Source: Sedimenticolaceae bacterium (GTDB lineage: Bacteria > Pseudomonadota > Gammaproteobacteria > Chromatiales > Chromatiaceae). From it: a stretch of 64,000 bases of DNA. The DNA lies in NCBI GenBank assembly GCA_963678215.1, contig OY782758.1, forward strand, positions 10,086 through 74,085, read 5' to 3'. A program made the position numbers and the translations under genes. Position 1 is the stretch's first letter; each line of letters opens with the position of its first letter. This document shows, piece after piece, positions 23,994-38,896 of the stretch. Under the pieces are notes generated by a model, which saw only the letters and a list, made by a program, of their open reading frames with translations, did no database searches and was not told the origin of the DNA.

Positions 23994-25421
23994 TTATCGT
24001 TCTCCTAGGATGGATTGCACGCTTTGCAGATAGTCTGGTTCCCATTCGCTAACCGATAAGGTTTTCATGTGCTCCGGGACAGCAGTCAGGAGGTCTTTGC
24101 CGACTTGTTGCAGGCCAGCCGCTTGCAATTGTTCAGCCGCTAATAATTTCAAATAATGTTGTTGACGCAAATTGCCCGCATTCCGTTGTTGTTGTTCGAC
24201 TTGCTCCAGTACAGCGCTAATGCCTTGGTTTTCGCGCAGTTCATGCCAGGTTGCTTGCAGGGCTGACCATTCCACATCCAGCGGGCTGGGGTTGTGGGGG
24301 GAATCTGGTGCCTGGATGAGCTGTAATACTTCGTTAAGGTAAGGTTCATCCAAATAAGGTAAACCACCGTCAAATTTGGCCTGGGTTAAAGCTGGCAAAC
24401 GTTCCAATAACGCCAGAATCATGCGCAGGATAGCCTGAGCGGCGGATGGATAACCTAAGAATTGGGTGGTCACCGCTGTATGTAAGGAGCCTGTCAGCCA
24501 GAATGGACTGGCGGTGACGCTTTTTTCAATGTTGCGTAATAACTCAAGGCTGTATTTTCCTGAGTTCATTTGATCGACATATCCATTGATAAGGTCAACT
24601 GGCGGGGGTGCCAGTTCACTTTCGCCATGCGCATTGAGAGGGGGAGTGGATTGCAGGCCGGACCAGAGCGCATAGCGTCGGATTTGATAGCCCAATGGGT
24701 CAGAGGTATCTTGTTGGTTGATAAGGTCGCCCAGGCTCAGCAAAAGTCGTTTTATTTGACGTTCATCGCCGAGATCGGCCAATTTCGGCGGTGTCTGGTC
24801 GGTGGAATTCGTCTCGCTGGATGTCGTAAGTGGCTGTCCTGCGGTGGTATGGGTACTTGCCGATGTTTCTTGAGCGGGTTTAATCGCTTTCAAGCGGCCC
24901 GTCAGTTTTTTCAATCCCGGGGTGAAGGCTTTTTGTTGGGCTTGTTGTTGGAGCGCTGTACAGGCTTCCTCCAGTGCTTCGTAGTGGCCGGCTGTTAAGG
25001 TGTTCGTATCACCCAGGATACGAGCCGCTCCCTGATCGATTCTGAACAGAATTTGCTCGACCAGTTTTTTACGATATGGCGTATGCGCCTCGCCAGGTCT
25101 TGGGTGGCCGTCAATCCAATATTGCGTAATGAAGCCGTTTAACAGTTGCAGGCTGTCCAGCAGGCTGGCGATGTCGCGTTTATTTAGCCAGCAAGTGATC
25201 AGGTGCAGCAGTACGCGATAATGTTTGCATTGGCTGCGTAATATCTGAGTGCATAAGGCTTCGACTTTAGACCAATCAATGCTGTTCTGGTGTAGTGAAC
25301 CATATTTCAGCATGATTTCTTCGAGTTCTTCCAGCAGTGCGTCGTCTTCTTCGCAAATGCCTGTGGGACGCCCTGCGTCAATTGGCGCAAGTAATGTTTC
25401 AAGCATGTTAGTCCTTGTCAA
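23994..25421 (-). CDS. tssA: Type VI secretion system protein TssA (ImpA N-terminal domain)
   Basis: 475 aa with an ImpA_N-type N-terminus: LLAPIDAGRPTGICEEDDALLEELEEI...IDWSKVEALCTQILRSQCKHYRVLLHLI. Its stop abuts the tssM start. Confidence 0.75.
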   Translation of the reverse strand: MTRTNMLETLLAPIDAGRPTGICEEDDALLEELEEIMLKYGSLHQNSIDWSKVEALCTQILRSQCKHYRVLLHLITCWLNKRDIASLLDSLQLLNGFITQYWIDGHPRPGEAHTPYRKKLVEQILFRIDQGAARILGDTNTLTAGHYEALEEACTALQQQAQQKAFTPGLKKLTGRLKAIKPAQETSASTHTTAGQPLTTSSETNSTDQTPPKLADLGDERQIKRLLLSLGDLINQQDTSDPLGYQIRRYALWSGLQSTPPLNAHGESELAPPPVDLINGYVDQMNSGKYSLELLRNIEKSVTASPFWLTGSLHTAVTTQFLGYPSAAQAILRMILALLERLPALTQAKFDGGLPYLDEPYLNEVLQLIQAPDSPHNPSPLDVEWSALQATWHELRENQGISAVLEQVEQQQRNAGNLRQQHYLKLLAAEQLQAAGLQQVGKDLLTAVPEHMKTLSVSEWEPDYLQSVQSILGER

Positions 25422-26160
25422 GAAAGTATGGATTGGCTGAGGTTCTTAACAGGCGGTTGAGGGCCGGATTTTCCAGCGGCATTTCACCCAGGCGCATTGT
25501 AAACAGGAAATACCTATATTTCCTAAGTATTTTTGTGCGGAGCCTTTAGTGATTGAAGCGTGTGTTTTGGAGGAAATGAGCCAGATGATCTGCTATGCGC
25601 GACAAAATGTGTAGATGTTGCTGATGCGGAATAATCTGGCATCCGGTTATGCTGATTTATCCGTTGAATTTCGAAAGACAGGTTTGGTCTCACTTATGCC
25701 AAAGCCTGTTTACAGATGCCTCAATTCTTCCATTGACACGCGTCGGTCAAACCGACCACAGTTTGCTGCGTATGCGCGCTGCCGCAGAAAAATATACCAT
25801 CCGGCAGAATAATCGCCATTACCGCATCGCGCTGTTTGGCGTTGCCTTCCGCGTAGTTTTTACCTAATTTGCCTGAATTCAGGTTGATCTTAGAGAACAG
25901 CCCTTAAAATTGAATCGGTCAATCATCATGTTCAGTACGCGCCATCTCCGCGAGATTGTCTCAGAGATTTCAGGATGAATCACATAATGCGCTTTGCAGC
26001 GCATTTGTTGCTGGCAGATTCAATTTGCAAGTGCAACGCATAGTCTTCAGTAGTCACTATGGTCTGTCATCACGCTTTGGCGCAAGCGGAATTGATCACC
26101 CGGTATCATCAGCGCCAAGCTACTTGAGCATTGCCCTGATGACCTGCGCATGCGCTTGAG

Positions 26161-26470
26161 TCCTGAAGCGCTTTATCAATGGATTTACGACGACGCCAAA
26201 GACGGTGGCACTTGGCATGAACATCTTTGGTGTAGACGCCACAAACCCCGTCCACATTGGCGTTATCGTGTTTGCCTGGGCGTGAGGATTTGGCGACGCA
26301 TACGGATCGTAAGAGCCGACTGCTGACCCTTATTCACCTTGGCAACGTGGCACGAATGAACAAATCAATGGCTTATTGCGGTGTTACTTCCCCAAGGAAA
26401 CGGGTTGTCCGGTATCGGATTGGGCACTGGATGACGTGGTATTGAATATTCAGAAGAGACTCATGCGGAA
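26161..26470 (+). pseudogene. IS30-family transposase relic (internally deleted, frameshifted)
   Basis: Fragments LSPEALYQWIYDDAKDGG, DRKSRLLTLI and, in another frame, [23 protein letters not shown]...LDDVVLNIQKRL match conserved IS30 InsI blocks ([34 protein letters not shown]). They are not in one frame and large parts are missing. Confidence 0.6.
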
Positions 26471-26605
26471 CAAAAGGAGAACAATTAGAAAGGACTCGCG
26501 CGCGGTTAATTGGATGCCAACTTGCAGGAAAAAAGAGGTTTTCTTATGAGAAACAAACGGTTAAATGAAAAATTTGGAAAAATTCCCGCAGAATTAGCAG
26601 GAAAC

Positions 26606-26655
26606 CTTGTAATCTTGTTTTGTGGGACGAAGTCCCTCAAAACAGGCTGTTAGCA
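26606..26655 (+). other. attC-like site preceding the first intact cassette
   Basis: CTTGTAATCTTGTTTTGTGGGAC GAA GTCCCTCAAAACAGGCT GTTAGCA. The arms TGTTTTGTGGGAC / GTCCCTCAAAACA pair with one mismatch. The R' core GTTAGCA is at 26649-26655. The R'' is degenerate (TGTAAT). Confidence 0.45.
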
Positions 26656-26684
26656 TTTTCCAATAGTCAGTCGATATAAATAAG

Positions 26685-27365
26685 ATGAAAATCGAATACG
26701 ACATTGCTATTTCATTTGCAGGTGAACAAAGGCCTATAGCAAAAAGAATTAATGATGTATTGAAGGAAAATGGGATTTCTACATTTTATGATGAAGATAA
26801 AATAGTCGAATTATGGGGAAAAAATCTAGCGGAGCACTTGCCCACAATTTATTCCGAAACAGCTCGTTTTGTTTTATTGATATTATCTGAGGAGTATTTA
26901 AATAAAGTATGGACCAAGGTAGAAAGGCGTGCTGCCATTTCTAGAATGATAAGAAGCAGCAATGAATATGTTCTTATCTATAAGGTAGGTGATGTGTGTA
27001 TGGAAAATGCTCCTGGCCTTAGTCGTGATACCGCGTATATTTCAGACTCACTTAAAAATCCAGAAGAAGTTGCATTATTAATTATGAAAAAGCTTGGACT
27101 TAGCTACTCATTGGAGGAACTCAAAAGCGTAATCCCAGATATAGCTAACAAGAGATTGCTTGTAGAGTCAAATGAGAAACAATTTCAAGACGGGTTTGTT
27201 CCATACATTACACTAAGAAACGAAGTATATCAACACTGCCGAGGGGTGGATTTGAAGATAATTGAAAAAATACTATATGATTTTCTGAATAGCCAAGTTA
27301 ACAGAGGCTTGTACGAATACTATGGTGGCGCTGTTTCTGGTTATCGCATCCCGAATAAAAGCTAA
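26685..27365 (+). CDS. TIR-domain protein (cassette 1)
   Basis: 226 aa with the bacterial TIR pattern YDIAISFAGEQRPIAKRINDVLKENGISTFYDED...FVLLILSEEYLNKVWTKVERRAA. The Glu in W-x3-E is the candidate catalytic residue. The C-terminal ~90 aa are unassigned. Confidence 0.7.
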   Translation: MKIEYDIAISFAGEQRPIAKRINDVLKENGISTFYDEDKIVELWGKNLAEHLPTIYSETARFVLLILSEEYLNKVWTKVERRAAISRMIRSSNEYVLIYKVGDVCMENAPGLSRDTAYISDSLKNPEEVALLIMKKLGLSYSLEELKSVIPDIANKRLLVESNEKQFQDGFVPYITLRNEVYQHCRGVDLKIIEKILYDFLNSQVNRGLYEYYGGAVSGYRIPNKS

Positions 27366-27417
27366 CAATTAAAATACACCCGACCTCCTTCGTCGGCGGG
27401 TGATTTAAGCGTTAGAG
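27361..27417 (+). other. attC site 1
   Basis: GCTAAC (27361) overlaps the stop; arms CACCCGAC / GTCGGCGGGTG; GTTAGAG at 27411-27417. Confidence 0.65.
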
Positions 27418-27427
27418 GTAAAAGAAG

Positions 27428-27877
27428 TTGAGGTATGAATGGTCAAAACTGAATAAGCAGCAAAAAGGAACTTATGGTGAATATTTGGCTAAAATGGAAT
27501 TTACTATGTATGGTTTGTCAGTTTTCACGGCAGAAGTAGATGATAGGGGAATTGACTTCGTGATACGTAATAACAATGGGAATCACTTTGATGTTCAAGT
27601 TAAAACTATTACAGGCAAAAATTACACATACATATCGGAGTCAAAGTTCAATAAGAACCTTTTAGTTTGTTTGTTAATTTTAAAAGAACACATGGAACCA
27701 TCTATGTTCTTAATTAAAGGCTCAGACTGGCATAGTGATGATTCAGGTCTGTTAAATTACAAACATTACCCAAGTTCAAAGGAAGCAGAATACGGCATCA
27801 ACATTACAAAAAGCAGGCTTAATCACTTACAAAAGTATGAATTTAAGAATGTTGTGTCATCAATTTCAGGCCTCTAA
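27428..27877 (+). CDS. Small PD-(D/E)xK-type nuclease-like protein (cassette 2)
   Basis: 149 aa with TTG start. The pattern GTYGEYLAKMEF...EVDDRGIDFVI...FDVQVKT fits E...D...(D/E)xK, a Hjc/DUF4365-like arrangement. Confidence 0.5.
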   Translation: MRYEWSKLNKQQKGTYGEYLAKMEFTMYGLSVFTAEVDDRGIDFVIRNNNGNHFDVQVKTITGKNYTYISESKFNKNLLVCLLILKEHMEPSMFLIKGSDWHSDDSGLLNYKHYPSSKEAEYGINITKSRLNHLQKYEFKNVVSSISGL

Positions 27878-27949
27878 CAATCACATTAAATACGCTCCCT
27901 CCGGTCGCCGGATGCTCGCAAGCTCGCACCGTTTATGTGGGCGTTAGCC
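27872..27949 (+). other. attC site 2
   Basis: TCTAAC at 27873-27878 overlaps the stop; inner CCGGTCGCCGG region; GTTAGCC at 27943-27949. Confidence 0.6.
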
Positions 27950-27959
27950 TCAGGAAAGA

Positions 27960-28769
27960 ATGGACAGAATACCACCTTTTGATGCACAACACTTAAAAGC
28001 TGTCTGCCGAGTCCTAGCGGATACAGAACGAGGATTAAGTGGAAGCGAGATAGAATATCTATTGCAAGATTGTAATATGCAAGATGTTGCGCCGACTATG
28101 ACGAAATGGAAAAGGCTATTCAATGCTATGGTAGAAGCTCAAAATACGCATCAGGTTGGAAATCACCTAATCATGTTTGTAAATCGAGCCATGAATCCCG
28201 TTTCATACTCTAGCAGTAAAGCAGCCTTTGATTGGCGAAGAAGTGAATTGAATGTTGTATTAGCATTTTCCGGTTACTCTGTGCGTGAAGACGGAAAGGT
28301 TGCTCGTTCAGCAAAGGAATCAACTATTTCTGGTGCACGGGCTAAAGCTAACGCACTCAAGCATGCACTAGAAGAACGAAACGCTCATCAGCAAGTTTTC
28401 ACATATTGTAGGGCTGAACTTGTAGATCAAAATTACTTTCATGCTGTACTTGAGGCCATTAAAGGCATAGCAGAGCGTATTCGTTCAATCTCTGGACTTT
28501 CTACCGATGGTGCAGAATTGGTAAACACCGCTTTCTCGGTAAAAGCTCCGCTGATTTCAATAAATCCTCTATCCACAGAAACAGAAATAAGTGAGCAAAA
28601 AGGATTTAGTAATATTCTTGTCGGCCTTTTTGGCGCAGTACGAAACCCAACAGCACATGCACCAAAGACCATGTGGGAGATCACTGAGCAAGATGCATTG
28701 GATGTTCTATCAATGGTTTCATATATTCACCGAAAACTTGATAAAGCAAAGGCTAACAAGGCAAATTAA
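27960..28769 (+). CDS. TIGR02391-like protein with C-terminal HEPN-type Rx4H motif (cassette 3)
   Basis: 269 aa. C-terminal FHAVLEAIKGIAERIR...GFSNILVGLFGAVRNPTAHAPK...DALDVLSMVSYIHRKLD matches my recollection of the TIGR02391 family. RNPTAH is the R-x4-H motif. Confidence 0.6.
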   Translation: MDRIPPFDAQHLKAVCRVLADTERGLSGSEIEYLLQDCNMQDVAPTMTKWKRLFNAMVEAQNTHQVGNHLIMFVNRAMNPVSYSSSKAAFDWRRSELNVVLAFSGYSVREDGKVARSAKESTISGARAKANALKHALEERNAHQQVFTYCRAELVDQNYFHAVLEAIKGIAERIRSISGLSTDGAELVNTAFSVKAPLISINPLSTETEISEQKGFSNILVGLFGAVRNPTAHAPKTMWEITEQDALDVLSMVSYIHRKLDKAKANKAN

Positions 28770-28826
28770 CACGGACCTCAAAAGCTGCTTCGCAGCTGTT
28801 GAGGCCGGTTATTTGCGGCGTTATGT
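28751..28826 (+). other. attC site 3
   Basis: GCTAACAAGGCAAATTAACACGGACCTCAAAAGCTGC TTC GCAGCTGTTGAGGCCGG...GCGGC GTTATGT (28820-28826). The left end overlaps the last codons of the ORF. Confidence 0.65.
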
Positions 28827-28860
28827 TTAAAAAATGAAGCCATATACTAAGGAGCAAATT

Positions 28861-29328
28861 ATGAAAAAAACATCAAGTTTAGTTTTAATATTCGTTTTTA
28901 TGGTAGGTTGCTCATCTACTTCATCTATAAACACAAATACGCCAACCGCTAGTACAACCAAAGAGCAGCTTAAACCCACTCCGTCAAAGAAAGTAATTCA
29001 AAATAAAAAAGTTGTGGGACAAAAGGAAAATATTAAACCTTTATACCCAAGCAGCAACTCCACAAAAAGTTTAACTAGTTCTTCTGCAAGCTCTAAATAT
29101 ACAGCCAAAAGAATTTATACTTGCTCCGAGTTAAATAAATCAAATGCCTATTCTTTATTGAAATCAGGTCATTCTTGCCTAGATAGAGATGGTGACGGAC
29201 ATCCTTGCGAATGGGGCAAGAAAAAAATAAAAACATATGCTCCATCGTATAAGAGCAATTGTCACTACGTTGGAGGGTATTATCGGAAAGGCGGAACTTA
29301 TGTTCGTGGTCACATGAGATGCAGATAA
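28861..29328 (+). CDS. Lipoprotein with Excalibur-like calcium-binding motif (cassette 4)
   Basis: ATG at 28861 after AAGGAG. Lipobox LIFVFMVGCSS, a Ser/Thr/Lys-rich linker, and C-terminal CSELNKSNAYSLLKSGHSCLDRDGDGHPCEW (DxDxDGxxCE). Confidence 0.6.
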   Translation: MKKTSSLVLIFVFMVGCSSTSSINTNTPTASTTKEQLKPTPSKKVIQNKKVVGQKENIKPLYPSSNSTKSLTSSSASSKYTAKRIYTCSELNKSNAYSLLKSGHSCLDRDGDGHPCEWGKKKIKTYAPSYKSNCHYVGGYYRKGGTYVRGHMRCR

Positions 29329-29330
29329 AA

Positions 29331-29463
29331 ACATAACAAGTACATCAACTGCGGACTTGCCTACTCAGTGGTTTAATTTCAATTTTGTGGTTTCAGCCAG
29401 TTTTACTGTAAATTTAAGTTCAGTGACTTCGTTTCCGGCAAGCCCGTTATGTAGGCGTTAGCA
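29331..29463 (+). other. attC site 4 (long, ~133 bp)
   Basis: CATAAC at 29332-29337; arms CTGCGGACTTGCC / GGCAAGCCCG; GTTAGCA at 29457-29463. Confidence 0.55.
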
Positions 29464-29514
29464 ATCTAGGTAGTTTATTCGTAGAAATCCAAAATATTTA
29501 TCAAAGGAAGTGTT

Positions 29515-30435
29515 ATGACAGGGTTTAATAATCAAACCTACAGTACCTTAGTAGAAGATTTACTGAATGACACATTTTACATTGGCGAGCGTTCTCCCAG
29601 AGGGACAATTGCGACTATAAGGCAGTACGCAGAGGTCATTGTAAGAAAGATACTAAATTTTTCTAATGAAGAGTACGTTACCCTTGGTAATAAGAAAATA
29701 ATAGAGGCATTAAATTGTGCCAGCAATAACAGCAGTTTACTATTAGATGCCCTAAAGAAAATTACCGATATTGGCAACAAATGTACGCATACGCAGAGAA
29801 TCGAGCAGGTAACAGATCAAGAGGTAGAAAGTACTCTAGAGAGCTTGTTTGATTTATATGCTTATCTCTTTGTTAACTACTTTGGAAAGTATAGATTTGG
29901 AGAAAATGAAGAAATTCAATCATCATTTTCAATTTTGCCACCGATTATAAGATATATAGCTCTTTCTTCCCTTTATGACCTAGATACTGAAAACGTTGCG
30001 ATTATTGATAAACTATCTCTCGCCATTTTAAAGGCATTTGATGAGCAGAAGGCAATAGGTTGGTTGAACGAAAGAAAGGATGAGTTGAAGAGTATGTCAT
30101 CAGTTACTCCAGAAGCAGAGTCCGATCTAAAGGAAAGACTTGGGGCGGCTACAACAAGTATTATCGTCAACCAAGCTCCGAATATGTATGACTTATGCAT
30201 AGATAGAGTTAAGACTGTGAATGTCAAAATACAAGAAAAAGGGCGTCTATACGATGATTTTGAAAGTGCTATAGAGTTATATAAAAAGGAAGGTGTTGTT
30301 TCAGGTGAGAGCGATGCTGTATCAGAGTTTAACGACTTGATGGATTTTGTCTATCTAGGAAGGAAGGCTAGAGAAAATGAAAAGCTTAAAAATAAAGATG
30401 CATATCTTATAATGGATAACTTGTTTTTCCAGTAA
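29515..30435 (+). CDS. DUF4145-like N-terminal domain protein (cassette 5)
   Basis: 306 aa. The N-terminal IATIRQYAEVIVRKILN...LGNKKIIEAL...LLLDALKKITDIGNKCTH resembles DUF4145, a helical HEPN-related module seen fused to restriction/Abi proteins. The rest is unassigned. Confidence 0.45.
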   Translation: MTGFNNQTYSTLVEDLLNDTFYIGERSPRGTIATIRQYAEVIVRKILNFSNEEYVTLGNKKIIEALNCASNNSSLLLDALKKITDIGNKCTHTQRIEQVTDQEVESTLESLFDLYAYLFVNYFGKYRFGENEEIQSSFSILPPIIRYIALSSLYDLDTENVAIIDKLSLAILKAFDEQKAIGWLNERKDELKSMSSVTPEAESDLKERLGAATTSIIVNQAPNMYDLCIDRVKTVNVKIQEKGRLYDDFESAIELYKKEGVVSGESDAVSEFNDLMDFVYLGRKARENEKLKNKDAYLIMDNLFFQ

Positions 30436-30437
30436 AT

Positions 30438-30485
30438 TGCTAACAAAGCGTTGCACCGGACGAGCCGGTGAACGCGGCGTTATGT
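30438..30485 (+). other. attC site 5 (short)
   Basis: GCTAAC (30439-30444) AAAGCGTT GCACCGG ACGAG CCGGTGAACGCGGC GTTATGT (30479-30485). Confidence 0.6.
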
Positions 30486-30520
30486 TTTTAATTGGAACTT
30501 GAATATGTGGAGGATTAAGT

Positions 30521-30883
30521 ATGCATTGGGAATATAGTCAATCTACGGGAAATATGAAATTTAAAGGAATGAAAGTTGCAAAAGGCTACTCTGGCTATGG
30601 CAATGGAAAAGATAAACCCATGATGGAGCATGTCATAAATATTGGCCCAATACCAAAGGGGGAATATGAAATTCAAGCTCCTAGAACTAGTGCAAAAACC
30701 GGCCCGTATGTTTTACCTTTAATACCAGTTAGGCACAATGCACGTGGAAGAACTAATTTTCAAATTCATGGAGATTCTATAGATAAGCCAGGAACGGCAT
30801 CAAATGGTTGCATAATACTAAATCGTTCTATTAGGGAAAAAATATGGCGAAGTGGCATCAGAAAGCTAATTGTAATCAATTAA
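30521..30883 (+). CDS. DUF2778 / Tlde1-like L,D-transpeptidase-fold toxin (candidate T6SS effector; cassette 6, gene 1)
   Basis: 120 aa: GYSGYGNGKDKP...NIGPIPKGEYEI...FQIHGDSIDKPGTASNGCIIL. The H...S-x-G-C catalytic-type motif and the GPIPxGxY segment are characteristic of DUF2778. Confidence 0.6.
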   Translation: MHWEYSQSTGNMKFKGMKVAKGYSGYGNGKDKPMMEHVINIGPIPKGEYEIQAPRTSAKTGPYVLPLIPVRHNARGRTNFQIHGDSIDKPGTASNGCIILNRSIREKIWRSGIRKLIVIN

Positions 30884-30898
30884 GATCTGGTATGTAAA

Positions 30899-31390
30899 AT
30901 GAAAATATCTATCTATACCTTTGTTGTATTCTTTATAGTCGGTTGTACTTTTGGAAGTGAAGGTTCTGAGAAAATAATTAAACGTCTAGAATCAGAAGGA
31001 AAGCCATATTTTGTTCACCTTGTTACTACACAAAAGTATGATCAATTACTAGATAAAATAGAAAATGGAGATGATTATTTAATTCGGGCTTCATCCGTAT
31101 TAACTCAATGGGTAGATGCTTCTACCTCATTATCTTTAAGGTTCTCATTATCGAGAGCAATGACGAAAAATCCTGGTGCGGTTATGAGTCTTGTTCCCAA
31201 TTTTTTTTCAATTCCTGAATTATGTACAATCCCTTACATTGAACCGCCCATTGATCTTGCAATAAAACACATTAATGACTCCATTTCTGCTTTGTCGAGT
31301 TATAGCAACTCTAACGGATCTTACATTAAGTGTATAAATATATATAAAGAAATTAGTAAAAACATAACAAAAAGCTCAAGCGGACGCTGA
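30899..31390 (+). CDS. Lipoprotein, candidate cognate immunity protein (cassette 6, gene 2)
   Basis: 163 aa with lipobox FFIVGCTF. It lies 15 nt downstream of the toxin gene with no attC between them. Confidence 0.45.
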   Translation: MKISIYTFVVFFIVGCTFGSEGSEKIIKRLESEGKPYFVHLVTTQKYDQLLDKIENGDDYLIRASSVLTQWVDASTSLSLRFSLSRAMTKNPGAVMSLVPNFFSIPELCTIPYIEPPIDLAIKHINDSISALSSYSNSNGSYIKCINIYKEISKNITKSSSGR

Positions 31391-31419
31391 AAACCGCTCC
31401 GCTTAGCTTGACGTTAGAT
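31372..31419 (+). other. attC site 6
   Basis: CATAAC (31373-31378) lies inside the ORF end; arms AAGCGGAC / CTCCGCTT; GTTAGAT at 31413-31419. Confidence 0.55.
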
Positions 31420-31428
31420 TCGGAAATT

Positions 31429-32091
31429 ATGATGTACAACCCTATAAGCAAACAACCAAGCCCATTTGTTTACATTATTGACTCACCTTCGCCACAAGAT
31501 TTGTTTGAAGGGTATACTATCGGAATGGCTCTACGAGATGCACTGCGGTCTATTCGCATCCCGCATTTCTATACGCTTGCAGTGAATAGAGAAGCATTGA
31601 ATACAGCGATGAGCGGAAAATTACAAGACTGCATTAATCAAATGCAGCCATATGCTTTAGCAACGGATGCGGTACCGCTTATTCATCTATGTATGCATGG
31701 TGCAAATACGGAAATCTCTTTAACCGACGGTTCGTTTATTACTTGGCAAGAACTAAGGCAGTTGTTAATTTCTCATAATCAAATTAAAGGTTACGACCCA
31801 TTCGTATGCATGGCTTCATGCAATGGAATAGAGGCATCATCCATGGCACATGCATATGACAGTGTGTTTAGCTATCTAATTGGAAACACAGGGCCTGTTT
31901 ATCAATCAGATTTAACTATCGCTTACCTTGCTTTTTACAATCAAATATTCGTAAAGAATGCCACTGTTGATCTAGCTGTATCAAAGATGAAAGTGGCGAC
32001 TGGCGATGAAAATTTTTACTACGCTAGTGGCCAAGTAATCAAACAACAGCGGTTCAATGAACTTTCAAATGGCTGGCAAAATAGAATCTAA
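31429..32091 (+). CDS. Minimal CHAT/caspase-like protein (His-Cys dyad; cassette 7)
   Basis: ATG at 31429. The track ORF start at 31408 lies inside attC 6. PLIHLCMHGANTEISLTDGSFITWQELRQLL...DPFVCMASCNGIEAS matches the caspase-hemoglobinase fold pattern (H-G, then hydrophobic strand, then S/A-C-x-G). Confidence 0.5.
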   Translation: MMYNPISKQPSPFVYIIDSPSPQDLFEGYTIGMALRDALRSIRIPHFYTLAVNREALNTAMSGKLQDCINQMQPYALATDAVPLIHLCMHGANTEISLTDGSFITWQELRQLLISHNQIKGYDPFVCMASCNGIEASSMAHAYDSVFSYLIGNTGPVYQSDLTIAYLAFYNQIFVKNATVDLAVSKMKVATGDENFYYASGQVIKQQRFNELSNGWQNRI

Positions 32092-32178
32092 CAAGCGCAT
32101 AAACTCGGACGTCAAAAAGCTGCGCCGCTCGTTCCTCGCTCTGCAGCTTTTTGCCTCCGGTTATGCTTGGCGTTAGCC
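32086..32178 (+). other. attC site 7
   Basis: TCTAAC at 32087-32092 overlaps the stop; arms CGGACGTCAAAAAGCTGCG / CTGCAGCTTTTTGCCTCCGG; GTTAGCC at 32172-32178. Confidence 0.65.
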
Positions 32179-32193
32179 GTCGAAGGAGAGTAG

Positions 32194-32472
32194 ATGCCTT
32201 ATCTAAGGTTTTATCGAAGAATTCCTATAATACCTGGATTGTTGTATCTGAACTTATCAAAAGGCGGTGTTTCCATCTCTATTGGTAAGCGCGGGTGGAC
32301 AGTTACCTTCGGAAAACATGGTGTTCGCTTTACAGCGGGTTTGCCCGGAACAGATTTGTTTGTTACGGAACATGTAAATTACGAAAAAATCAACGTTAAG
32401 GAGCGTGAAAAAGAGGCTCCAAGCATTGAACAATTTATAGGAGAACGTGATGGCACGAAAGAAGAAAGATGA
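32194..32472 (+). CDS. DUF4236 domain protein (cassette 8, gene 1)
   Basis: 92 aa. YLNLSKGGVSISIGKRGWTVTFGKHGVRFTAGLPGT matches the DUF4236 repeat pattern. Confidence 0.6.
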   Translation: MPYLRFYRRIPIIPGLLYLNLSKGGVSISIGKRGWTVTFGKHGVRFTAGLPGTDLFVTEHVNYEKINVKEREKEAPSIEQFIGERDGTKEER

Positions 32473-33196
32473 TGCAGGTGGGGTAATTATTCTAATAATT
32501 ATAGTGGTTTTGGTTGTAATAGCTCTCGCTACGCCAGTAGTAATCGTTATCGGGTATTTGTACAACAAAATCAAAGAAAGCGAAGTAAGAAAACATTTAA
32601 CAGGTACTATGACTGGTTTTTGGATTGAAGATAATGAAAAACGTGATTTCAAAGAAAAAGTCTATCAATTATCACAGGTAGAGAAAATAATACAACAGGC
32701 CAATAATAAAGGTGAGCAGGCAGGGATAAGCAGAAACCAAGATGGTACATTTTCCGCCAGAAGTAAACTTGGAAAAGAATTAAAAGGAACAATAAGTAAA
32801 CATGAACCAATAAAAGCCAATCTTATTGGATACTTGCAAGAATTGCAGAGTCTTCCAATTTCACGTTGGGAAGACTTCAATAATTATGTAAGAAATGGCA
32901 AGTCCTTTCTTTTGTCGCTTTGCAGTTGGGTTGCCGCACTGGTGTATTATTCAATAACACTTGGGAAGCAGACCATATCTGAAGCAATTATGCCATATTA
33001 CGCATTAGCAACTAATTTTTTCCGAGATGAAGGCAACAAACTGCCGATGGTAGATGGTGACTTAAAAATGGTAGCAATAGCCACAGTTGCAGCAATTGCC
33101 TCATATTTTTTGTTTCGTGTCATTTTTGCCAATGCTGCTACAAAATATTCTCCAAAGCCTGGGGTTGTAACGCTTGAAAATATTGATACATATTGA
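32450..33196 (+). CDS. Membrane protein (cassette 8, gene 2)
   Basis: ATG at 32450, 6 nt after AGGAG, overlapping gene 1 by 23 nt. N-terminal TM helix VIILIIIVVLVVIALATPVVIVIGYL and two C-terminal helices (FLLSLCSWVAALVYYSI, MVAIATVAAIASYFLFRVIF). Confidence 0.5.
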   Translation: MARKKKDDAGGVIILIIIVVLVVIALATPVVIVIGYLYNKIKESEVRKHLTGTMTGFWIEDNEKRDFKEKVYQLSQVEKIIQQANNKGEQAGISRNQDGTFSARSKLGKELKGTISKHEPIKANLIGYLQELQSLPISRWEDFNNYVRNGKSFLLSLCSWVAALVYYSITLGKQTISEAIMPYYALATNFFRDEGNKLPMVDGDLKMVAIATVAAIASYFLFRVIFANAATKYSPKPGVVTLENIDTY

Positions 33197-33202
33197 CGAA
33201 AC

Positions 33203-33274
33203 GGCTAACAAGGCATTCCACCGGACGGCAATTCCGCTACGCTCCATTGCCGCCGGTGAGCTTGGTCGTTATAG
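33203..33274 (+). other. attC site 8
   Basis: GCTAAC (33204-33209) AAGGCATTCCACCGGACGGCAAT...CATTGCCGCCGGTGAGCTTGGTC GTTATAG (33268-33274). Confidence 0.65.
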
Positions 33275-33357
33275 GGCTTATTGATGGTTTAAAGGCCTAC
33301 TAAACGTTGAACCTTTAAAAGAATGGCTTTAAATATTCACAGTAAAAAGGGTGAAAA

Positions 33358-34752
33358 ATGGAAGCAGAGATAGCAAGTACTTCAAGTATTTCACCAAAAT
33401 CATTTCTAAAAGCTAGAAGACCAGAGCGTTTTTCCGATTCAATAACAAAGGATGTAGGTAAACTAGATCGTTCTGTTTTGGAATTTCAGTTGTCTACGCT
33501 TAATAGAAGAAATATGGAGTTGGCATTCGAAGATTTCGCTAAAAGACTCTGTGAAAAAGTCATTTGTCCAAATCTGCTAGAGCAAACAGGTCCGGTTGCG
33601 GGTGGTGATGGAAAGGTAGATACACAAACCTTTCCCGTATCAGAGCAATCTAAAGTTCTTTGGTATATTGGAGTTGATGAAAATTCCAACAACGAACGAT
33701 GGGCTTTTGCAGTAAGCACACAAGAAGATTGGAAAGCTAAGTGCAGGAAAGATGTTCGAAAAATAAAAGCCACTGACCGAGATTACAAAAAAGCATTTTG
33801 TGTAACAAATATGTATGCAAAAGCTAATCAGCGAAGTGAGTTGGAAGACTCGTTAAGGGAAGAAACTGGAATTGATGTAAGAATTTTAGATATCTCTTGG
33901 ATACTAGATCAAATCTTTTCCAATGGCTACGAACAATTGGCGATTGATTGTTTGTCGATTGACATAGACTGGCGCCGAGAAATAGAAATCGGAGTTAATG
34001 ACTACGCTAGAAATGTAAGGCTAAATGAGCTCGAAGAATTAATAAAAAATGAAATAGACACTAGTAAAGTGCTCCCTCACCAATTGGATTGGTTATTAGA
34101 GGTCGCGGTATTGTCAAAGGAACTCGAAAAGCCCTCAATTGAAACACAGGGTCTTTTTCTAAGAGCTATTAAAGCGGCTGAAAAATTTGGCACTAATTCC
34201 CATCGATTTAATGCTCATTATCAGTATGCTTGGGCTGCCTATTGGTGGTTTGAAGACATTGCTATATTTGGCGAACAGCTATCGTTATGTTTGCAGATAG
34301 CGAAAGGAATTGAGCAATCGGCTCAATGGGGAGATACAGTATCGCTTCTTGGTCTCTATTCGAGCTACTATCGAGGTAGTGAAGGTGAAAGTGATTTGGA
34401 TATCGAATCGCTTCTGTTAGAGGCAAACGGCGAACTCAATAAGCTTGCAAAAAAGGATGAACGACCCAGTAATTCTCTGATGTCTCGGATCTATATTGAA
34501 TTGTTAAATTTGCATTCCATCAAGAATATAGACCAAGCTTCAGCCATATTTTCATCAATGCACGAAATTATGAAAGAAGGTGAGAAGTTAGTAGGCTTCT
34601 CATTTAATGAAGTATCCGATTTGGTTACCGAGTTGGATAGTTTGTTTGGTGAATTAGAAAGTTATGAAAATTTACTTGACTATATTACAGAGTGCACTTC
34701 ACGTCGTGAGGGCGAGGTTAGGGCCAATGTCATTAACTTAAGGGATAAGTGA
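33358..34752 (+). CDS. Hypothetical 460-aa-class protein, 3' end disrupted by IS insertion (cassette 9)
   Basis: The native reading frame runs to about 34724. The last 8-9 codons and the stop are supplied by the IS inverted repeat. The N-terminal region FEDFAKRLCEKVICPNLLEQTGPVAGGDGKVD...WAFAVSTQEDWK weakly resembles Mrr-type restriction-endonuclease cores. The C-terminal half is helical and repeat-like. Confidence 0.45.
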   Translation: MEAEIASTSSISPKSFLKARRPERFSDSITKDVGKLDRSVLEFQLSTLNRRNMELAFEDFAKRLCEKVICPNLLEQTGPVAGGDGKVDTQTFPVSEQSKVLWYIGVDENSNNERWAFAVSTQEDWKAKCRKDVRKIKATDRDYKKAFCVTNMYAKANQRSELEDSLREETGIDVRILDISWILDQIFSNGYEQLAIDCLSIDIDWRREIEIGVNDYARNVRLNELEELIKNEIDTSKVLPHQLDWLLEVAVLSKELEKPSIETQGLFLRAIKAAEKFGTNSHRFNAHYQYAWAAYWWFEDIAIFGEQLSLCLQIAKGIEQSAQWGDTVSLLGLYSSYYRGSEGESDLDIESLLLEANGELNKLAKKDERPSNSLMSRIYIELLNLHSIKNIDQASAIFSSMHEIMKEGEKLVGFSFNEVSDLVTELDSLFGELESYENLLDYITECTSRREGEVRANVINLRDK

Positions 34753-36164
34753 TTGCGTACGCTTATAGTTTGGTCGGAAAGCGGGGACCGCAACCTTTTT
34801 CAAATGCCTCGGGAAAGACCGACCGGGCCTGACGGGTTCGACCGCATTGACCATGCGTTGCAACAAGCACTGACATAAGTCGAGCACAGCATCAGAGCAT
34901 AACACGCGCATCAGGTTATTCTTCATCGCCGATAAGGCATTGGCCCAGTTGATTTGGTATCGATAATGCCTTTTTCGGTAACGCTCATCGGCCAACCACT
35001 GGGCAATGAACACAAAAATTGCGGTCAGGTTCTGCGCCAGGATTTTGGCCTGAAAATCCTGTAAGACGACCTGGGGCGAACGACCTGAGACATTCTCCAC
35101 CTCCAGGCGTAATTTGCTCCGCTTATACTGCTCCTCAATGCCCCAACGTAAGGCATACAACTTGGCAAACAACCGAGTGGGGTAGGTTTTCTCGTCCAGT
35201 AATGAGGTAGCCAAAACTTCAATCTCTCCAGACTTCAGTTCCACCCGGATTAAGCGTACCAGGATGGGCTTTGTTGGCAAATGAAAGTCTTTACACTGGC
35301 GGGCATTCTGGGCATTGGGTGTCAGCGACACGAGAGTGCTTTTTTGTCCTGATGCCACAAAGGCTTTCACTTCAGCATGGAAGTCCAGGCGTACCCGCGC
35401 ACAAAAGCCCCGTTGTTGCACGCAATGGAAAACAAACAGCCAGAACGCCGCATAGCCCCGGTCATACAAGAAAAGATCATCTGGACGGGACTCCAGGACA
35501 TACTCACTGGCAAAAGTGCGTTCACCCTCCGCATAGGGAGCCAAGTCGGCTTGAATCACCCGATCATTGAGCACATCATACAGCGTAGACCAGCGGGCCA
35601 AAGGGACGCCATCGCCTTTGCGGTGACCAAAATGTGCGGCAATCTGAGGGGTAGAGGGCAACCGGGCAGTAGAACCATCCACGGCCAAGACACGCAAACC
35701 TTGCCAACGTCGTTCACCGAGTTGTTGGGAAGCCAGATCAACCAGACGGTCATTGAGCCAAACCAAGGCGTGTGGGTTGAGTTTTTGACGTGCTCGACAC
35801 AAAGCGGCGGGGGTGACTGGCTTCACGTTGGGTTGTGCTTCCTGTAACACCTCAAAAGCCTGATCCAGCTCATTGCGCAGGGTGCCTTTACGGAAATTGA
35901 GGCGTAGAGGGACTAAGCGGGATAGCGGTAAATCGCGTTGGCGGGAAAAATCACCGACCTGAGTGCGGGCTTGTTGGAGAAAGTCGTCTGAGCGAATAAC
36001 ATCCTTTATAGGGTCATAGATGTTTCTAAATAATGCGCTGAATCTGGGCAAGATCGGTTGTCGGGACTGGGGCTGAAAGGGACATGAAATGCTCCTGAGT
36101 AAACGATGAACTGGTAAAATACCTTACACTATTCAGGCACTTAGTGCTTAAGTTAATGACATTG
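34725..36164 (-). mobile_element. IS4-family insertion sequence (1440 bp) with about 27-bp imperfect terminal inverted repeats
   Basis: IRL CAATGTCATTAACTTAAGGGATAAGTG (34725-) and the complement of IRR CAATGTCATTAACTTAAGCACTAAGTG (-36164). The first 18 bp are identical. GC content is visibly higher than in the flanking cassettes. No direct target duplication was recognised. Confidence 0.8.
34738..36051 (-). CDS. IS4-family DDE transposase
   Basis: 437 aa with DDE blocks VLAVDGS, LFLYDRGY and YALRWGIEEQYKRSK (Y-x2-R-x3-E-x6-K). Confidence 0.85.
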   Translation of the reverse strand: MPRFSALFRNIYDPIKDVIRSDDFLQQARTQVGDFSRQRDLPLSRLVPLRLNFRKGTLRNELDQAFEVLQEAQPNVKPVTPAALCRARQKLNPHALVWLNDRLVDLASQQLGERRWQGLRVLAVDGSTARLPSTPQIAAHFGHRKGDGVPLARWSTLYDVLNDRVIQADLAPYAEGERTFASEYVLESRPDDLFLYDRGYAAFWLFVFHCVQQRGFCARVRLDFHAEVKAFVASGQKSTLVSLTPNAQNARQCKDFHLPTKPILVRLIRVELKSGEIEVLATSLLDEKTYPTRLFAKLYALRWGIEEQYKRSKLRLEVENVSGRSPQVVLQDFQAKILAQNLTAIFVFIAQWLADERYRKRHYRYQINWANALSAMKNNLMRVLCSDAVLDLCQCLLQRMVNAVEPVRPGRSFPRHLKKVAVPAFRPNYKRTQSLIP

Positions 36165-36217
36165 CCCCTAGACCCAGCGTACCATCTTGAAATTCCTCAA
36201 CCACAACGGAGGTAGTT

Positions 36218-36718
36218 TTGCTTGGATTAAAAGTTCGTACATTTTGGCAGATTGTTATATTCAGTTTTGTGGCGTCTAGTTCAGCATACGCCACTGAAAA
36301 CTGTATTTTTAGCAAGGAAAATATTTCCCAAAAGCAATATTCGGATAACCCTGCTATTGAGGTTTTCCAATGGTTCCCCAAAAGTAATGAAGTTAAAGGG
36401 GTTCTATCTAACGGCCATTTATTTTCTGTGAAACACTGGGCATGCCATCACTACGGAAAGCAGGCCATTATGCTTATAGGGCCGCAAATAGCATCCATTC
36501 CGCGTGAACTTAACAAGCATATTCTGCAACTGGGCAAAGTAGCCCTTAGCAAGACCGAATTTATGTTGCTAACGAATAACATAGCAAATAAGCCATTTAA
36601 GCTAGCAGATTCCCCCATAACATTGCGTATTAAATCTAAAACCTTTGATGACTTCTATGTACAGACAAATATTATAGGGGAGGTAATATTGATTGAGATT
36701 AGACTATATAAATCATAG
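36218..36718 (+). CDS. Secreted hypothetical protein
   Basis: 166 aa. TTG start 7 nt after GGAGG and signal peptide FWQIVIFSFVASSSAYA. No motif recognised. Confidence 0.45.
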   Translation: MLGLKVRTFWQIVIFSFVASSSAYATENCIFSKENISQKQYSDNPAIEVFQWFPKSNEVKGVLSNGHLFSVKHWACHHYGKQAIMLIGPQIASIPRELNKHILQLGKVALSKTEFMLLTNNIANKPFKLADSPITLRIKSKTFDDFYVQTNIIGEVILIEIRLYKS

Positions 36719-36833
36719 CGCTTAACAAAACATTCCAGCGGAACCCCAACACTGCGCGGCTTTTTGCGCATGGCTTCGCCATTGTCGCGCAAACGCTGCT
36801 CCGCGTTGGGTTCCGCTGAGTTTGGCGTTATCG
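36719..36833 (+). other. attC site 9
   Basis: GCTTAAC (36720-36726) AAAACATTCCAGCGGAACCCCAACACTGCGCGG...CCGCGTTGGGTTCCGCTGAGTTTGGC GTTATCG (36827-36833). Long complementary arms. Confidence 0.65.
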
Positions 36834-37061
36834 CGCTGGGCAAAGCCCAGCGTATTCTTGCAGGGTGAAAGCAAAGTGGCATAAATCCAAATTCACCCCT
36901 TTAGGTGGTACGAAAATACTTGACCACTACAGTGATGGTTCGCGCGAAAGTGAGTACAACCGGGGAACCGGATGCGGGAAAACTGCACGTCAGGGTCTGT
37001 GCGGGGGGCGTCCGGTAACGGGCGTTCCTACCGCGAGAGGTGAAAAAGAAAGAGTAGATAT

Positions 37062-37319
37062 ATGCCAATAATAAGCAGATTTCTTGGAATAATCATAGCC
37101 ATGTATTGGGATGATCATTCTCCTCCACACTTTCATGCAAAGTATGCAGAGTATGAAATAACCATAAATATTCACACCGGTGTAGTAGAGGGAAAATTCC
37201 CAAAACGAGCACTCAAGCATGTTCTCGAATGGTATGAATTACACAAAGATGAATTAATTGAAAACTGGGAGCTATGTCAGAATAATGAAGCACCAAGACC
37301 CATAGAACCACTGGAGTGA
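37062..37319 (+). CDS. DUF4160 domain protein (cassette 10, gene 1)
   Basis: 85 aa. ISRFLGIIIAMYWDDHSPPHFHAKY is the DUF4160 signature. Confidence 0.75.
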   Translation: MPIISRFLGIIIAMYWDDHSPPHFHAKYAEYEITINIHTGVVEGKFPKRALKHVLEWYELHKDELIENWELCQNNEAPRPIEPLE

Positions 37320-37324
37320 TAATT

Positions 37325-37612
37325 ATGTTTCTTCATGTTACAAACGCAAAATATCTAGAAGATTATAAGGTAGAAGTATCATTTAACAATGGCCGGAAAG
37401 GTGTGGCTGATTTAATCGATGCTTTAAAAGGTCCAGTATTTAGCCTATTGAAAAATAAATCAGAATTTTCTAGATTCATAGTTGATAAAGAGCTTGAAAC
37501 AATTGTTTGGCCCAATGGGGCTGATCTAGCTCCTGAATATATATTTTTTCAAGCATTTAAAAACGAACCTGAACTTCAGGCACAATTCAAACAATGGGGT
37601 TATATCACCTAA
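37325..37612 (+). CDS. DUF2442 domain protein (cassette 10, gene 2)
   Basis: ATG at 37325. VTNAKYLEDYKVEVSFNNGRKGVADL...ETIVWPNGADLAPEYI fits DUF2442, the usual partner of DUF4160. Confidence 0.7.
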   Translation: MFLHVTNAKYLEDYKVEVSFNNGRKGVADLIDALKGPVFSLLKNKSEFSRFIVDKELETIVWPNGADLAPEYIFFQAFKNEPELQAQFKQWGYIT

Positions 37613-37615
37613 AAA

Positions 37616-37646
37616 TTGCTTAAATCTGACGCATTTGGCGTTATGT
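37616..37646 (+). other. Truncated attC-like remnant
   Basis: GCTTAAATCTGACGCATTTGGC GTTATGT (37640-37646) is directly followed by GTAACAATCAGCCGCGCAC, an R''-like left arm. It is too short for a complete site and looks like fused halves. Confidence 0.3.
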
Positions 37647-37671
37647 GTAACAATCAGCCGCGCACATAAAT

Positions 37672-37725
37672 TTCCAATCAATTTGCAGTAATTCTATACT
37701 CTCAGCAAACCCATCGTACTGAGAG
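37672..37725 (+). promoter_or_regulatory. Candidate sigma70 promoter plus operator-like inverted repeat upstream of the RHH gene
   Basis: TTCCAA (37672-37677), 17-nt spacer, TATACT (37695-37700). The 7-bp inverted repeat CTCTCAG (37699-37705) / CTGAGAG (37719-37725) lies between the -10 box and the RBS GAGGTG. Confidence 0.35.
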
Positions 37726-37732
37726 GTGTAAA

Positions 37733-37954
37733 ATGCCCAGGCTTACTGTTGATCTATCCTCCGAAATTGACTCCCGCCTTACTTCCATTGCCCAGAGGCA
37801 AGGTATCTCCAAAGCCGAAGCCATGCGACGAGCATTCGCATTACTGTCAGTCGCAGACCAAGAAACCGCCAAAGGGAATTCTTTGGGCATTGTGCGTGAA
37901 GATCCCAATGGACATGAACTTATAGCTCTTGGCCGTGTTGTGGGGCTTCAATGA
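37733..37954 (+). CDS. Ribbon-helix-helix (CopG/MetJ-type) protein, antitoxin-like (cassette 11, gene 1)
   Basis: 73 aa. The N-terminal PRLTVDLSSEIDSRLTSIAQRQGISKAEAMRRAF is a typical RHH beta-alpha-alpha segment. Confidence 0.65.
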   Translation: MPRLTVDLSSEIDSRLTSIAQRQGISKAEAMRRAFALLSVADQETAKGNSLGIVREDPNGHELIALGRVVGLQ

Positions 37955-38208
37955 ACAGTGAGGAAAACATTGATCTGAAATCGGTCTTCTCTGAAGAGAG
38001 CCGTGTCAGCATTGATGAAAGTGATCGCTTAAAATTCGCGAAGCAAGTGCTATTTTAGCTGGGGTTTATTTGTATTGCGGTATTTATCGGCTATGCGGTG
38101 TTTCCAGAAAACGCAGCATTAGCAGCTATATTTGAGTTGGTTAAAATCGGGGCATTACTGTTGGTCACCTTGGTGATTTTCTTTTACTTTCCCAATTCAA
38201 GCAAGTAA
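37951..38208 (+). pseudogene. Small membrane-protein gene interrupted by an in-frame amber codon (cassette 11, gene 2)
   Basis: ATG at 37951 overlaps the RHH stop (ATGA). It reads 35 codons (MNSEENIDLKSVFSEESRVSIDESDRLKFAKQVLF), then TAG at 38056-38058, then 49 more in-frame codons encoding two hydrophobic segments (LGFICIAVFIGYAVF...IGALLLVTLVIFFYF), with the stop at 38206-38208. Confidence 0.5.
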
Positions 38209-38284
38209 CACATAATCAACCATTCAACCAGGAGTGCCTTCGTCACTTACGCTCTTCAGCCGCCCTGTTAATGGGGCGTTAGCG
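38203..38284 (+). other. attC site 11
   Basis: AGTAAC (38204-38209) overlaps the stop; GTTAGCG at 38278-38284; partially complementary arms (CCATTCAACCAGG / CCCTGTTAATGG). Confidence 0.5.
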
Positions 38285-38318
38285 CCAAAAATATCATTTC
38301 CAACGTTGTGTTGGAACT

Positions 38319-38603: not shown

Positions 38604-38605
38604 AG

Positions 38606-38893: not shown

Positions 38894-38896
38894 TTG

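Follow-up and report, generated by a model that had tools for sequence, protein, structure and literature searches.

A 64,000-nucleotide stretch of the genome of a Sedimenticolaceae bacterium (contig OY782758.1; "the window" below means this whole stretch) holds, at positions 30481-31413, a gene cassette that we read as one mobile unit for a toxin and its immunity protein. We assign this reading, taken as a whole, a probability of roughly 0.6. The first gene encodes a 120-residue enzyme of the kind represented by the Salmonella toxin Tlde1a, and the second encodes a candidate immunity lipoprotein; the comparisons described below suggest that the enzyme is toxic and that the lipoprotein neutralises it. 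An initial annotation of this DNA had pointed to a 120-residue open reading frame (ORF) carrying GPIPKGEYEI and, 15 nt downstream, to a lipoprotein with the lipobox IVGC, and both ORFs were found as described. The features of the cassette are:

30436-30488, + strand: attC recombination site of the preceding cassette (fold scan; covariance model 50.8 bits, a training-set site)
30481-31413, + strand: the mobile unit, one gene cassette of ~933 bp with two genes and a single attC (~96% nucleotide identity to contig L001 over exactly that span)
30509-30514, + strand: Shine-Dalgarno-like GGAGGA, 6 nt before the toxin ATG
30521-30883, + strand: predicted minimal Tlde1-like cysteine peptidase of the L,D-transpeptidase fold, 120 aa (PF10908, phrog_24118, AlphaFold2 model, Foldseek)
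30899-31390, + strand: candidate immunity lipoprotein, 163 aa (sequence, lipobox IVGC, family F1)
31360-31422, + strand: the cassette's own attC (fold scan; covariance model 59.6 bits, a training-set site)

The attC sites were found in two ways, by a fold-based scan for TAAC...GTTA, made first, and then by a covariance model trained on window sites, with the structure taken from single-sequence folds. Both attC sites flanking the pair belong to the training set, and the model scores for them are therefore partly circular. The model fits this type of attC only, and negatives in other taxa are uninformative (a Photobacterium array scores weakly). The 5' boundary of the cassette is the 3' core GTTATGT (30479-30485) of the attC at 30436-30488, with the cassette beginning at TT, 30480/30481, and the 3' boundary is the core GTTAGAT (31413-31419) of the attC at 31360-31422. 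A contig from another sample (L001) carries a pair 96% identical to this one directly after queC, and both of its flanks are unrelated to those of the window. The alignment of the two begins exactly at TTATGTTTTTAATTGG, just past the G in the GTT core, and runs as far as ...GCTTGACGTTA, where homology ends at CGTTA. Since the homology spans exactly core to core, the pair moves as one cassette, a conclusion that we hold to be close to certain; judged from the sequences, both genes travel together by recombination at the G/TT core. The covariance model found no attC between 30488 and 31360, and the 15-nt spacer between the genes shows no trace of one. The earlier proposal of a single cassette without an attC between its genes was thus borne out by the model and by the core-to-core homology with L001.

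Other copies show the same unit in other surroundings. Homologous cassettes in L001, L008/L113, L009, L102, L104, L105 and L112 end in the same attC, and diverged copies with both genes and this attC occur in at least four other genomic contexts. The pair lies alone between unrelated genes on a 386-kb contig (L008/L113), within another array (L009), and on short metagenome contigs (L104, L105, L109, L112). A second cassette of the same type, 67% identical, is present elsewhere in the same species (L102 10001-11522). Its lipoprotein gene is split by an internal deletion into two ORFs (10378-10596 and 10563-10736) while the toxin ORF is retained, and the broken pair is followed by an attC (10706-10768) and then by a HigBA cassette. 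The second copy in the window's own genome (P0022) has a toxin altered at conserved positions, including G96D next to the catalytic Cys. Exact-sequence look-ups of P0022, of the window's toxin and of its lipoprotein matched no recorded gene. The paralogous cassette looks like a decaying pair, and such cassettes appear to decay.

The toxin ORF (30521-30883, stop codon at 30881-30883) reads ...GPIPKGEYEI...FQIHGDSIDKPGTASNGCIIL... and starts with a hydrophilic N-terminus lacking a signal peptide. Its start codon is fixed by the N-terminal pattern M-x-W-x-Y-x-Q-S-T-G, which is conserved across all homologs. The assignment to DUF2778/Tlde1 made in the initial annotation held up: the protein matches the Pfam family PF10908 (Tlde1_dom) with 59.6 bits against a cut-off of 30.1 (expectation value, E, 5e-16; residues 20-115 aligned to positions 3-111 of the 120-position profile), a sequence match that is far beyond chance. 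The predicted catalytic residues are His83 (30767-30769) and Cys97 (30809-30811), within the motif H83-x10-S94-N95-G96-C97. Homologs numbered 285, and the best 120 of these 285 are mostly 118-135 aa long (range 109-175), all with PF10908. The H...SxGC arrangement noticed earlier proved to be a property of the family, with H83 and C97 invariant in 44 homologs and S94 and G96 conserved in at least 90% of them; also invariant are Y23, G25, G42, P43, P45, G61, R77, F80, G84, D85, R105 and S111.

The structural prediction agrees with this assignment. The AlphaFold2 model of the toxin has a predicted local distance difference test score (pLDDT) of 97.3, and its top Foldseek match in the PDB is Tlde1a itself (7uo8_A; template modelling score, TM, 0.70 normalised to the query, probability 1.00, E 8e-4). 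The alignment covers 165 columns, and normalised to the target the TM is 0.51. The L,D-carboxypeptidases Bd1075 and Pgp2 and YkuD-type L,D-transpeptidases rank after it, and beyond them there is nothing meaningful. We consider it very probable that the protein is a peptidoglycan-active enzyme of the L,D-peptidase fold. It is a member of the PF10908 family, yet belongs to a distinct minimal clade.

Tlde1a and Tldi1a are the L,D-transpeptidase-like effector and the immunity protein of a type VI secretion system (T6SS), the one encoded on SPI-6 of Salmonella Typhimurium (PF10908/DUF2778; PDB 7UMA, 7UO3, 7UO8). Beyond sharing the Pfam domain and the fold of Tlde1a, its best PDB match, the window's toxin has its Cys nucleophile in an (S/T)xGC motif after a conserved His and Arg. 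By position, R77...H83...S94-N95-G96-C97 corresponds to the Tlde1a motif residues R115, H121, S128, H129, G130 and C131 (PMC9638812). Both enzymes lack a signal peptide, both have an adjacent small gene for a periplasm-targeted protein, and both are single domains small enough for Hcp. The two differ in that the His-to-Cys loop of the window's toxin is longer by four residues, about 45-50 residues of Tlde1a are left unmatched in the structural alignment, and the window cassette lies outside any T6SS cluster. Going by size, the unmatched residues are presumably the capping subdomain, which would then be absent here. The capping subdomain of Tlde1a is thought to be important for exchange activity.

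The lipoprotein starts at ATG 30899, exactly 15 nt after the toxin stop codon, and begins MKISIYTFVVFFIVGC, with a positive n-region, a hydrophobic core and the lipobox IVGC (30935-30946) around Cys16, followed by Thr at +2. These signals predict an exported, lipid-anchored protein, probably on the outer membrane and facing the periplasm. The mature part is all-helical, with two conserved cysteines, Cys109 and Cys145, and the AlphaFold2 model consists of helices throughout (pLDDT 87.6). Searches of Pfam, NCBIfam, PHROG and PADLOC returned no match for it, and we refer to its unannotated family as F1. A word-indexed search recovered 27 relatives, several of them apparently on the same contigs as the closest toxin homologs, and a full hidden Markov model search gave 387 representative clusters, of which 101 reach E <= 1e-10. 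A number of F1 members are ~300 aa long and consist of two tandem copies; one look-up for a distant member led to a 710-bp contig. The 5' arm of the cassette's attC (31362-31390) encodes the last nine codons of the lipoprotein, NITKSSSGR, and its stop. As the ...SSGR tail is preserved in many homologs, the C-terminus of the protein is coupled to the recombination site.

If the lipoprotein were the partner of the toxin, the two genes should stay together in distant relatives. Toxin relatives were gathered by a genome scan run with 13 closer sequences. The next gene encoded a protein with a signal peptide or lipobox at 32 of 52 bacterial toxin-homolog loci, 0-20 nt away or overlapping. Toxin and partner follow each other in this order, 10-20 nt apart, in copies whose toxins range from 96% to as little as 44% identity, and they do so across phyla. 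The partners fall into a few families. F1 accounts for 11 loci, including some whose toxin shares no more than 44-53% identity with that of the window; profile alignment by hhalign linked the lipoprotein to F1 partners from Pseudoalteromonas (98.9%, E 2e-17), Noviherbaspirillum (97.0%) and two Geobacteraceae (L046/L047; 96.4%, E 1.4e-9), while a Photorhabdus partner (L053) enters F1 through a BLAST chain, with a direct hhalign probability of 32% only. None of ten partner proteins from other loci matched Pfam, so none is DUF2195/Tldi1.

The reverse search, started from the lipoprotein, yielded eight metagenome loci whose upstream DNA was long enough to judge. In six the toxin gene lies directly upstream, once with a frameshift; the remaining two carry intact orphan F1 genes (L106 1033-1524 and L107 863-1354). 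Partners of families F1, F2 and F3 were absent from all 34 viral loci (420 kb) that carry a toxin homolog. Periplasmic location, tight linkage across divergence, orphan genes and absence from phages together form the pattern expected of an immunity protein. It is highly likely that the lipoprotein is the cognate partner of the toxin, and we regard immunity as its probable function. The initial annotation had named the lipoprotein as an immunity candidate; its standing as the toxin's cognate periplasmic partner is supported by the co-occurrence and gains from the presence of Hcp-linked partners in the same family.

Both orphan F1 genes directly follow a solute symporter gene in a high-GC organism and resemble the orphan immunity genes of T6SS loci. 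A second and commoner partner family, F2, is likewise without a Pfam model; its members are 113-134 aa long, carry either a signal peptide or a lipobox, and show the motif C..W(A/P)(T/S)(S/N)MA(F/Y)V.LKN. F2 genes lie directly downstream of a toxin homolog at L007, L012-L016, L018, L025, L028, L036, L037, L041, L042, L044 and L050, in Vibrio, Photobacterium, Thaumasiovibrio, Ketobacter, Paraburkholderia and other hosts.

The toxin-immunity reading implies the following sequence of events. Made without an export signal, the toxin would be harmless in the cytoplasm of the producer. Once in a periplasm, it would attack the peptide stems of peptidoglycan; it might remove or exchange the terminal D-Ala in the manner of Tlde1a, or cleave links of the L,D type. 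The lipoprotein would bind and block, in the periplasm, toxin arriving from sister cells. Delivery would most likely be by a T6SS, with the toxin as cargo within the Hcp tube, and attC recombination would carry the pair from genome to genome as one unit.

We favour the Hcp-tube route because the toxin is small and bare, because the same module lies behind hcp in Photorhabdus and Geobacter, and because an Rhs protein carries the domain at its end. At 13 kDa, and lacking any translocation or receptor-binding part, the bare domain fits cargo of the Hcp lumen, and it has been proposed that small Tlde1-type effectors travel within Hcp (bioRxiv 10.1101/2020.02.18.954545). Among 58 related genome loci, three have hcp (PF05638) directly upstream of the toxin, namely Photorhabdus luminescens (L053) and the two Geobacteraceae (L046/L047), and all three carry an F1-family partner. 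These orphan-Hcp modules share with the window cassette the toxin clade (44-45% identity), the F1 partner and the order and spacing of the two genes. They differ in lacking attC and in having their own hcp directly upstream, while the window cassette lacks hcp and lies between attC sites. One further locus of the 58 (L055 86-1766) encodes an Rhs fusion with a C-terminal Tlde1_dom (34.9 bits) followed by a 205-aa lipoprotein; it belongs to a metagenome-assembled genome of the Woeseiaceae and represents a polymorphic-toxin version of the domain. Delivery by a T6SS is the best route we can name, and we place it at about even odds.

Three T6SS genes also lie to the left of the array of cassettes to which the pair belongs, and their presence in the host counts in favour of T6SS delivery. 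All three were assigned by Pfam and stand outside the cassette:

19089-20390, - strand: tagA/vasL-like gene
20400-23993, - strand: tssM
23994-25421, - strand: tssA

The initial annotation had drawn attention to a distance of about 5 kb between the pair and tssA/tssM. The distance itself is correct, as tssA ends at 25421, 5.1 kb from the toxin gene, but it carries no weight. In a closely related strain (L101; its housekeeping proteins share 90%-identity clusters with those of the window), another island occupies the ald-tssA slot, and the nearness to tssA/tssM is therefore coincidental. tssA is the first T6SS gene at the slot edge in both the window and L101, and no TssM or TssA was found near any other fetched locus. 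Variable islands collect in the ald-tssA slot, a hotspot that borders tssA by chance. In the window it is filled by the attC array (25422-39560) and in L101 (11126-19395) by a type I restriction-modification system, AAA_13 and a zeta-toxin. The idea that the array truncated a T6SS cluster was rejected, since the related strain has the same tssA edge beside a different island. The earlier remark that no PAAR, VgrG or adaptor gene adjoins the pair was likewise accurate as an observation, but the absence is not unusual, small Tlde1-type effectors being thought to be carried by Hcp.

Several points count against the toxin-immunity reading and keep its probability where we have set it. The first group concerns delivery. 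The window holds just three T6SS genes (tssA, tssM and the tagA-like gene), and no hcp, vgrG, PAAR or adaptor gene lies in or next to the cassette. A direct T6SS link is present in only four of the 58 loci. This is far below the 43-77% of the named Tlde1 families, for which that share lies in T6SS vicinity (bioRxiv 10.1101/2020.02.18.954545).

The second group concerns the likeness to the Salmonella pair. Neither the protein nor a 44-sequence profile reached Tlde1a in PDB sequence searches, the only result being a weak YkuD match (4lpq, E 0.21), and the link to Tlde1a therefore rests on the Pfam match together with the fold. The toxin has 120 residues against about 173-174 in Tlde1a, and with its single Cys it can form neither of the two conserved disulfides of Tlde1a. 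Asn95 takes the place of the second motif His, H129, and is variable in the clade; in Tlde1a the H129A exchange leaves exchange activity intact and lowers carboxypeptidase and crosslinking activity (PMC9638812). The partner lies downstream, whereas Tldi1 lies upstream, and it is a lipoprotein of an unannotated helical family rather than DUF2195; its model has no Foldseek relative in the PDB.

The third group concerns the pair itself. The toxin tree was considered as a possible tracker of the partner families, and this was rejected, as the two were not congruent in a rough neighbour-joining tree. The broken lipoprotein in the same-species paralog indicates that selection on the pair is not strict everywhere. 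Expression in the array is uncertain as well. The cassette has a good ribosome-binding site, and the distance from its boundary to the toxin ATG is only 40 nt. We found no promoter of its own and neither a cassette promoter (Pc) nor an integrase nearby; a promoter scan gave 12 sites against 8.6 +/- 3.2 in shuffled sequences, with none at 30481-30521. Finally, phages also use the 120-aa clade, so "T6SS effector" is not the sole role of this type of protein.

The phage copies give rise to the strongest of the competing explanations, which we nevertheless judge unlikely. Here the cassette would hold a captured phage lysis enzyme and not a T6SS weapon, serving autolysis, the release of vesicles or proteins, remodelling of the wall or an early lysis directed against phages, and the lipoprotein would act as a periplasmic brake. 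In the anti-phage variant, lysis would come prematurely, after the holin of an infecting phage had opened the membrane. The toxin matches phrog_24118, a family of "unknown function", over its full length (E 2e-40), and predicted phage structures superpose on it with a TM of 0.96. Homologs 35-57% identical, as close as many bacterial ones, occur on 34 IMG/VR contigs, jumbo phages included, and in a rough tree a jumbo-phage clade is the sister of the window's clade plus its F2-partnered relatives.

Many phage copies stand in the endolysin position, immediately preceded by a holin (phrog_3427) or immediately followed by Rz-like spanins (phrog_8821, phrog_214), as do copies in Brevundimonas and Caulobacter prophages; examples are L088 2580-3373, L067 8001-8952, L032 10001-10836 and L017 9394-10972. 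In Burkholderia phage JC1 the DUF2778 gene is located elsewhere (PMC9144972). These positions suggest that phrog_24118 is an endolysin family of the L,D-transpeptidase fold. Trimming of the terminal D-Ala would not by itself be expected to lyse a cell, and the bond cut by this clade may for that reason differ from the one cut by Tlde1a. The enzyme is thus a general wall-cutting module, found in phages, in Hcp- and Rhs-linked toxin systems and in an integron cassette.

What separates the window's copy from the phage copies is its company. Proteins of phrog_24118, such as an uncultured Caudovirales "Tlde1 domain-containing protein" and gp086c of Yersinia phage fHe-Yen9-02, belong to the same 120-aa clade, yet they lie in lysis cassettes or among jumbo-phage genes and never beside a periplasmic partner gene, while the window's copy has a partner and sits in an attC cassette. 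No holin, spanin or other phage gene is present in the cassette or among its neighbours, which places this copy outside an endolysin context. If the lipoprotein were a brake on a lysis enzyme, its presence with most bacterial copies and with none of the phage copies (as noted above for F1, F2 and F3), and the occurrence of its family within hcp-toxin-partner modules, would not be expected. Orphan partner genes likewise agree with protection from a foreign toxin rather than with a brake on the cell's own enzyme. The defence-like character of neighbouring cassettes (TIR/ThsB-like and PD-Lambda-3_B) would suit an anti-phage role, but PADLOC was empty for both proteins of the pair.

Two-gene cassettes of sedentary chromosomal integrons are typically toxin-antitoxin pairs, with RelE/ParE and HigBA common. 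The window cassette resembles them in its co-oriented genes, single attC, scarcity of promoters, long low-GC array on one strand and recombination at a G/TT core, and it differs in that its pair is split between cytoplasm and periplasm, follows an interbacterial logic and sits in an array without an integrase. An addiction module that stabilises the array, as RelE/ParE and HigBA cassettes do, could account for the two-gene layout; the array also carries RelE-like and DUF2442 cassettes, and a HigBA cassette adjoins the paralogous copy. We consider this improbable. In a type II toxin-antitoxin system both products are cytoplasmic, and here the partner has a predicted lipobox signal peptide and the Cys109/Cys145 pair. 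Products in different predicted compartments could hardly interact in this way, as a lipoprotein with a probable disulfide cannot neutralise a toxin in the cytoplasm, and the substrate, mature peptidoglycan, lies outside the cytoplasm. The paralog, moreover, lost its partner by deletion and kept the toxin ORF, a state that a true addiction module would not tolerate.

That two unrelated genes merely came to share a cassette, for instance through loss of an attC between them, is scarcely credible, for although the lipoprotein has no annotated relatives and the functions of both proteins are inferred, their order and 10-20 nt gap are kept over the whole range of toxin identity given above, a search begun with the lipoprotein leads back to the toxin, and the 15-nt spacer bears no trace of an attC.

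T6SS effector-immunity modules spread by homologous replacement, on islands and on prophage-like elements. A study of Vibrio cholerae arrays found no evidence for integrase-type insertion of effector-immunity modules (PMC5361080), and in the searchable full-text literature we came across no account of a T6SS-type effector-immunity pair carried on an attC cassette. We tentatively propose that integrons, CALINs (the integrase-less attC clusters described below) included, shuttle whole weapon-and-shield units, that F1 is an undescribed family, and that phages, T6SS arsenals and cassettes swap one enzyme directly. It is conceivable, on the same footing, that the minimal Tlde1-like peptidase and F1 (~390 clusters) cross very different bacteria in this way and leave decayed pairs and orphans behind. 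If this holds, integron cassettes would be a fast, site-specific route of exchange for interbacterial toxins and, importantly, for immunity genes. The pair would also define a new immunity family together with a minimal scaffold of the L,D-peptidase type, and this scaffold, presumably without a capping subdomain, would offer a ready-made way to learn which elements of the fold toxicity depends on. The endolysin-slot observation would assign a PHROG of unknown function a role that can be tested.

The pair belongs to the following array:

27358-38970, + strand: attC array, 11 attC sites in one orientation, with an insertion sequence (IS) inserted at 34719-36170

The region from 26.6 to 39 kb has a GC content of 37-42%, against ~50% in the flanks, and consists of short ORFs on one strand with imperfect hairpins of the form xxxTAAC...GTTAxxx between them. 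Nine hairpins came from the fold-based scan, before the model was built. The covariance model gave 11 attC sites, all on the + strand (27358-38970), of which those at 36718-36836 and 29329-29466 lie outside the training set; the rest of the 64 kb yielded a single weak match, at 59611 (E 0.17). A strict scan of the window for RYYYAAC/GTTRRRY gave no match because the array sites read xxxTAAC. A generic AAC...GTT hairpin scan was discarded, as its 88 matches across a window of 50% GC gave no discrimination.

With cassettes on the + strand, intI is expected on the left side. That side is bounded directly by tssA, and the right side by IS fragments and housekeeping genes. No integron integrase was found in a six-frame Pfam scan of 25422-26690, the 1.27 kb from tssA to the first cassette; the interval has no ORF of at least 90 aa and contains transposase debris only. 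With no intI beside it, the array is a CALIN and not a complete integron, which would have intI, attI and Pc. The earlier description of an integron cassette stands in so far as the unit is bounded by attC, and needs correcting in that no integrase lies beside the array. Transposase fragments, IS30-like and IS3-like, lie at the array ends (26150-26326 and about 39200-39440, - strand), and may be the reason for the missing integrase.

The window comes from a 2,481,312-bp contig of an uncultured gammaproteobacterium. Outside the host's own species cluster its MnmE reaches at most 68% identity, and the nearest named relatives, Sedimenticola and Candidatus Thiodiazotropha, reach 58-61%.

The other cassettes carry varied cargo. 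The first (26685-27365) encodes a TIR-domain protein (Pfam TIR_2; PADLOC PDC-S66/ThsB-like). A near full-length PD-Lambda-3_B homolog (PADLOC E 1.8e-132) occupies a cassette of its own at 27960-28769 and is preceded by a cassette with a weak DUF4365 match (27428-27877), from which it is separated by the attC at 27870-27952; a two-gene defence system may be split across these two cassettes (27428-28769). The intact IS (34719-36170) contains a DDE_Tnp_1 transposase gene (34738-36051) between 33-nt inverted repeats and is inserted at the end of a 464-aa ORF (33358-34752). Typical array cargo follows further to the right: a DUF2442 protein with a small upstream ORF (37063-37612), a RelE-like toxin (38319-38603) also with a small upstream ORF (37734-38603), and a 4-oxalocrotonate-tautomerase-like ORF whose start is apparently frameshifted (38989-39191).

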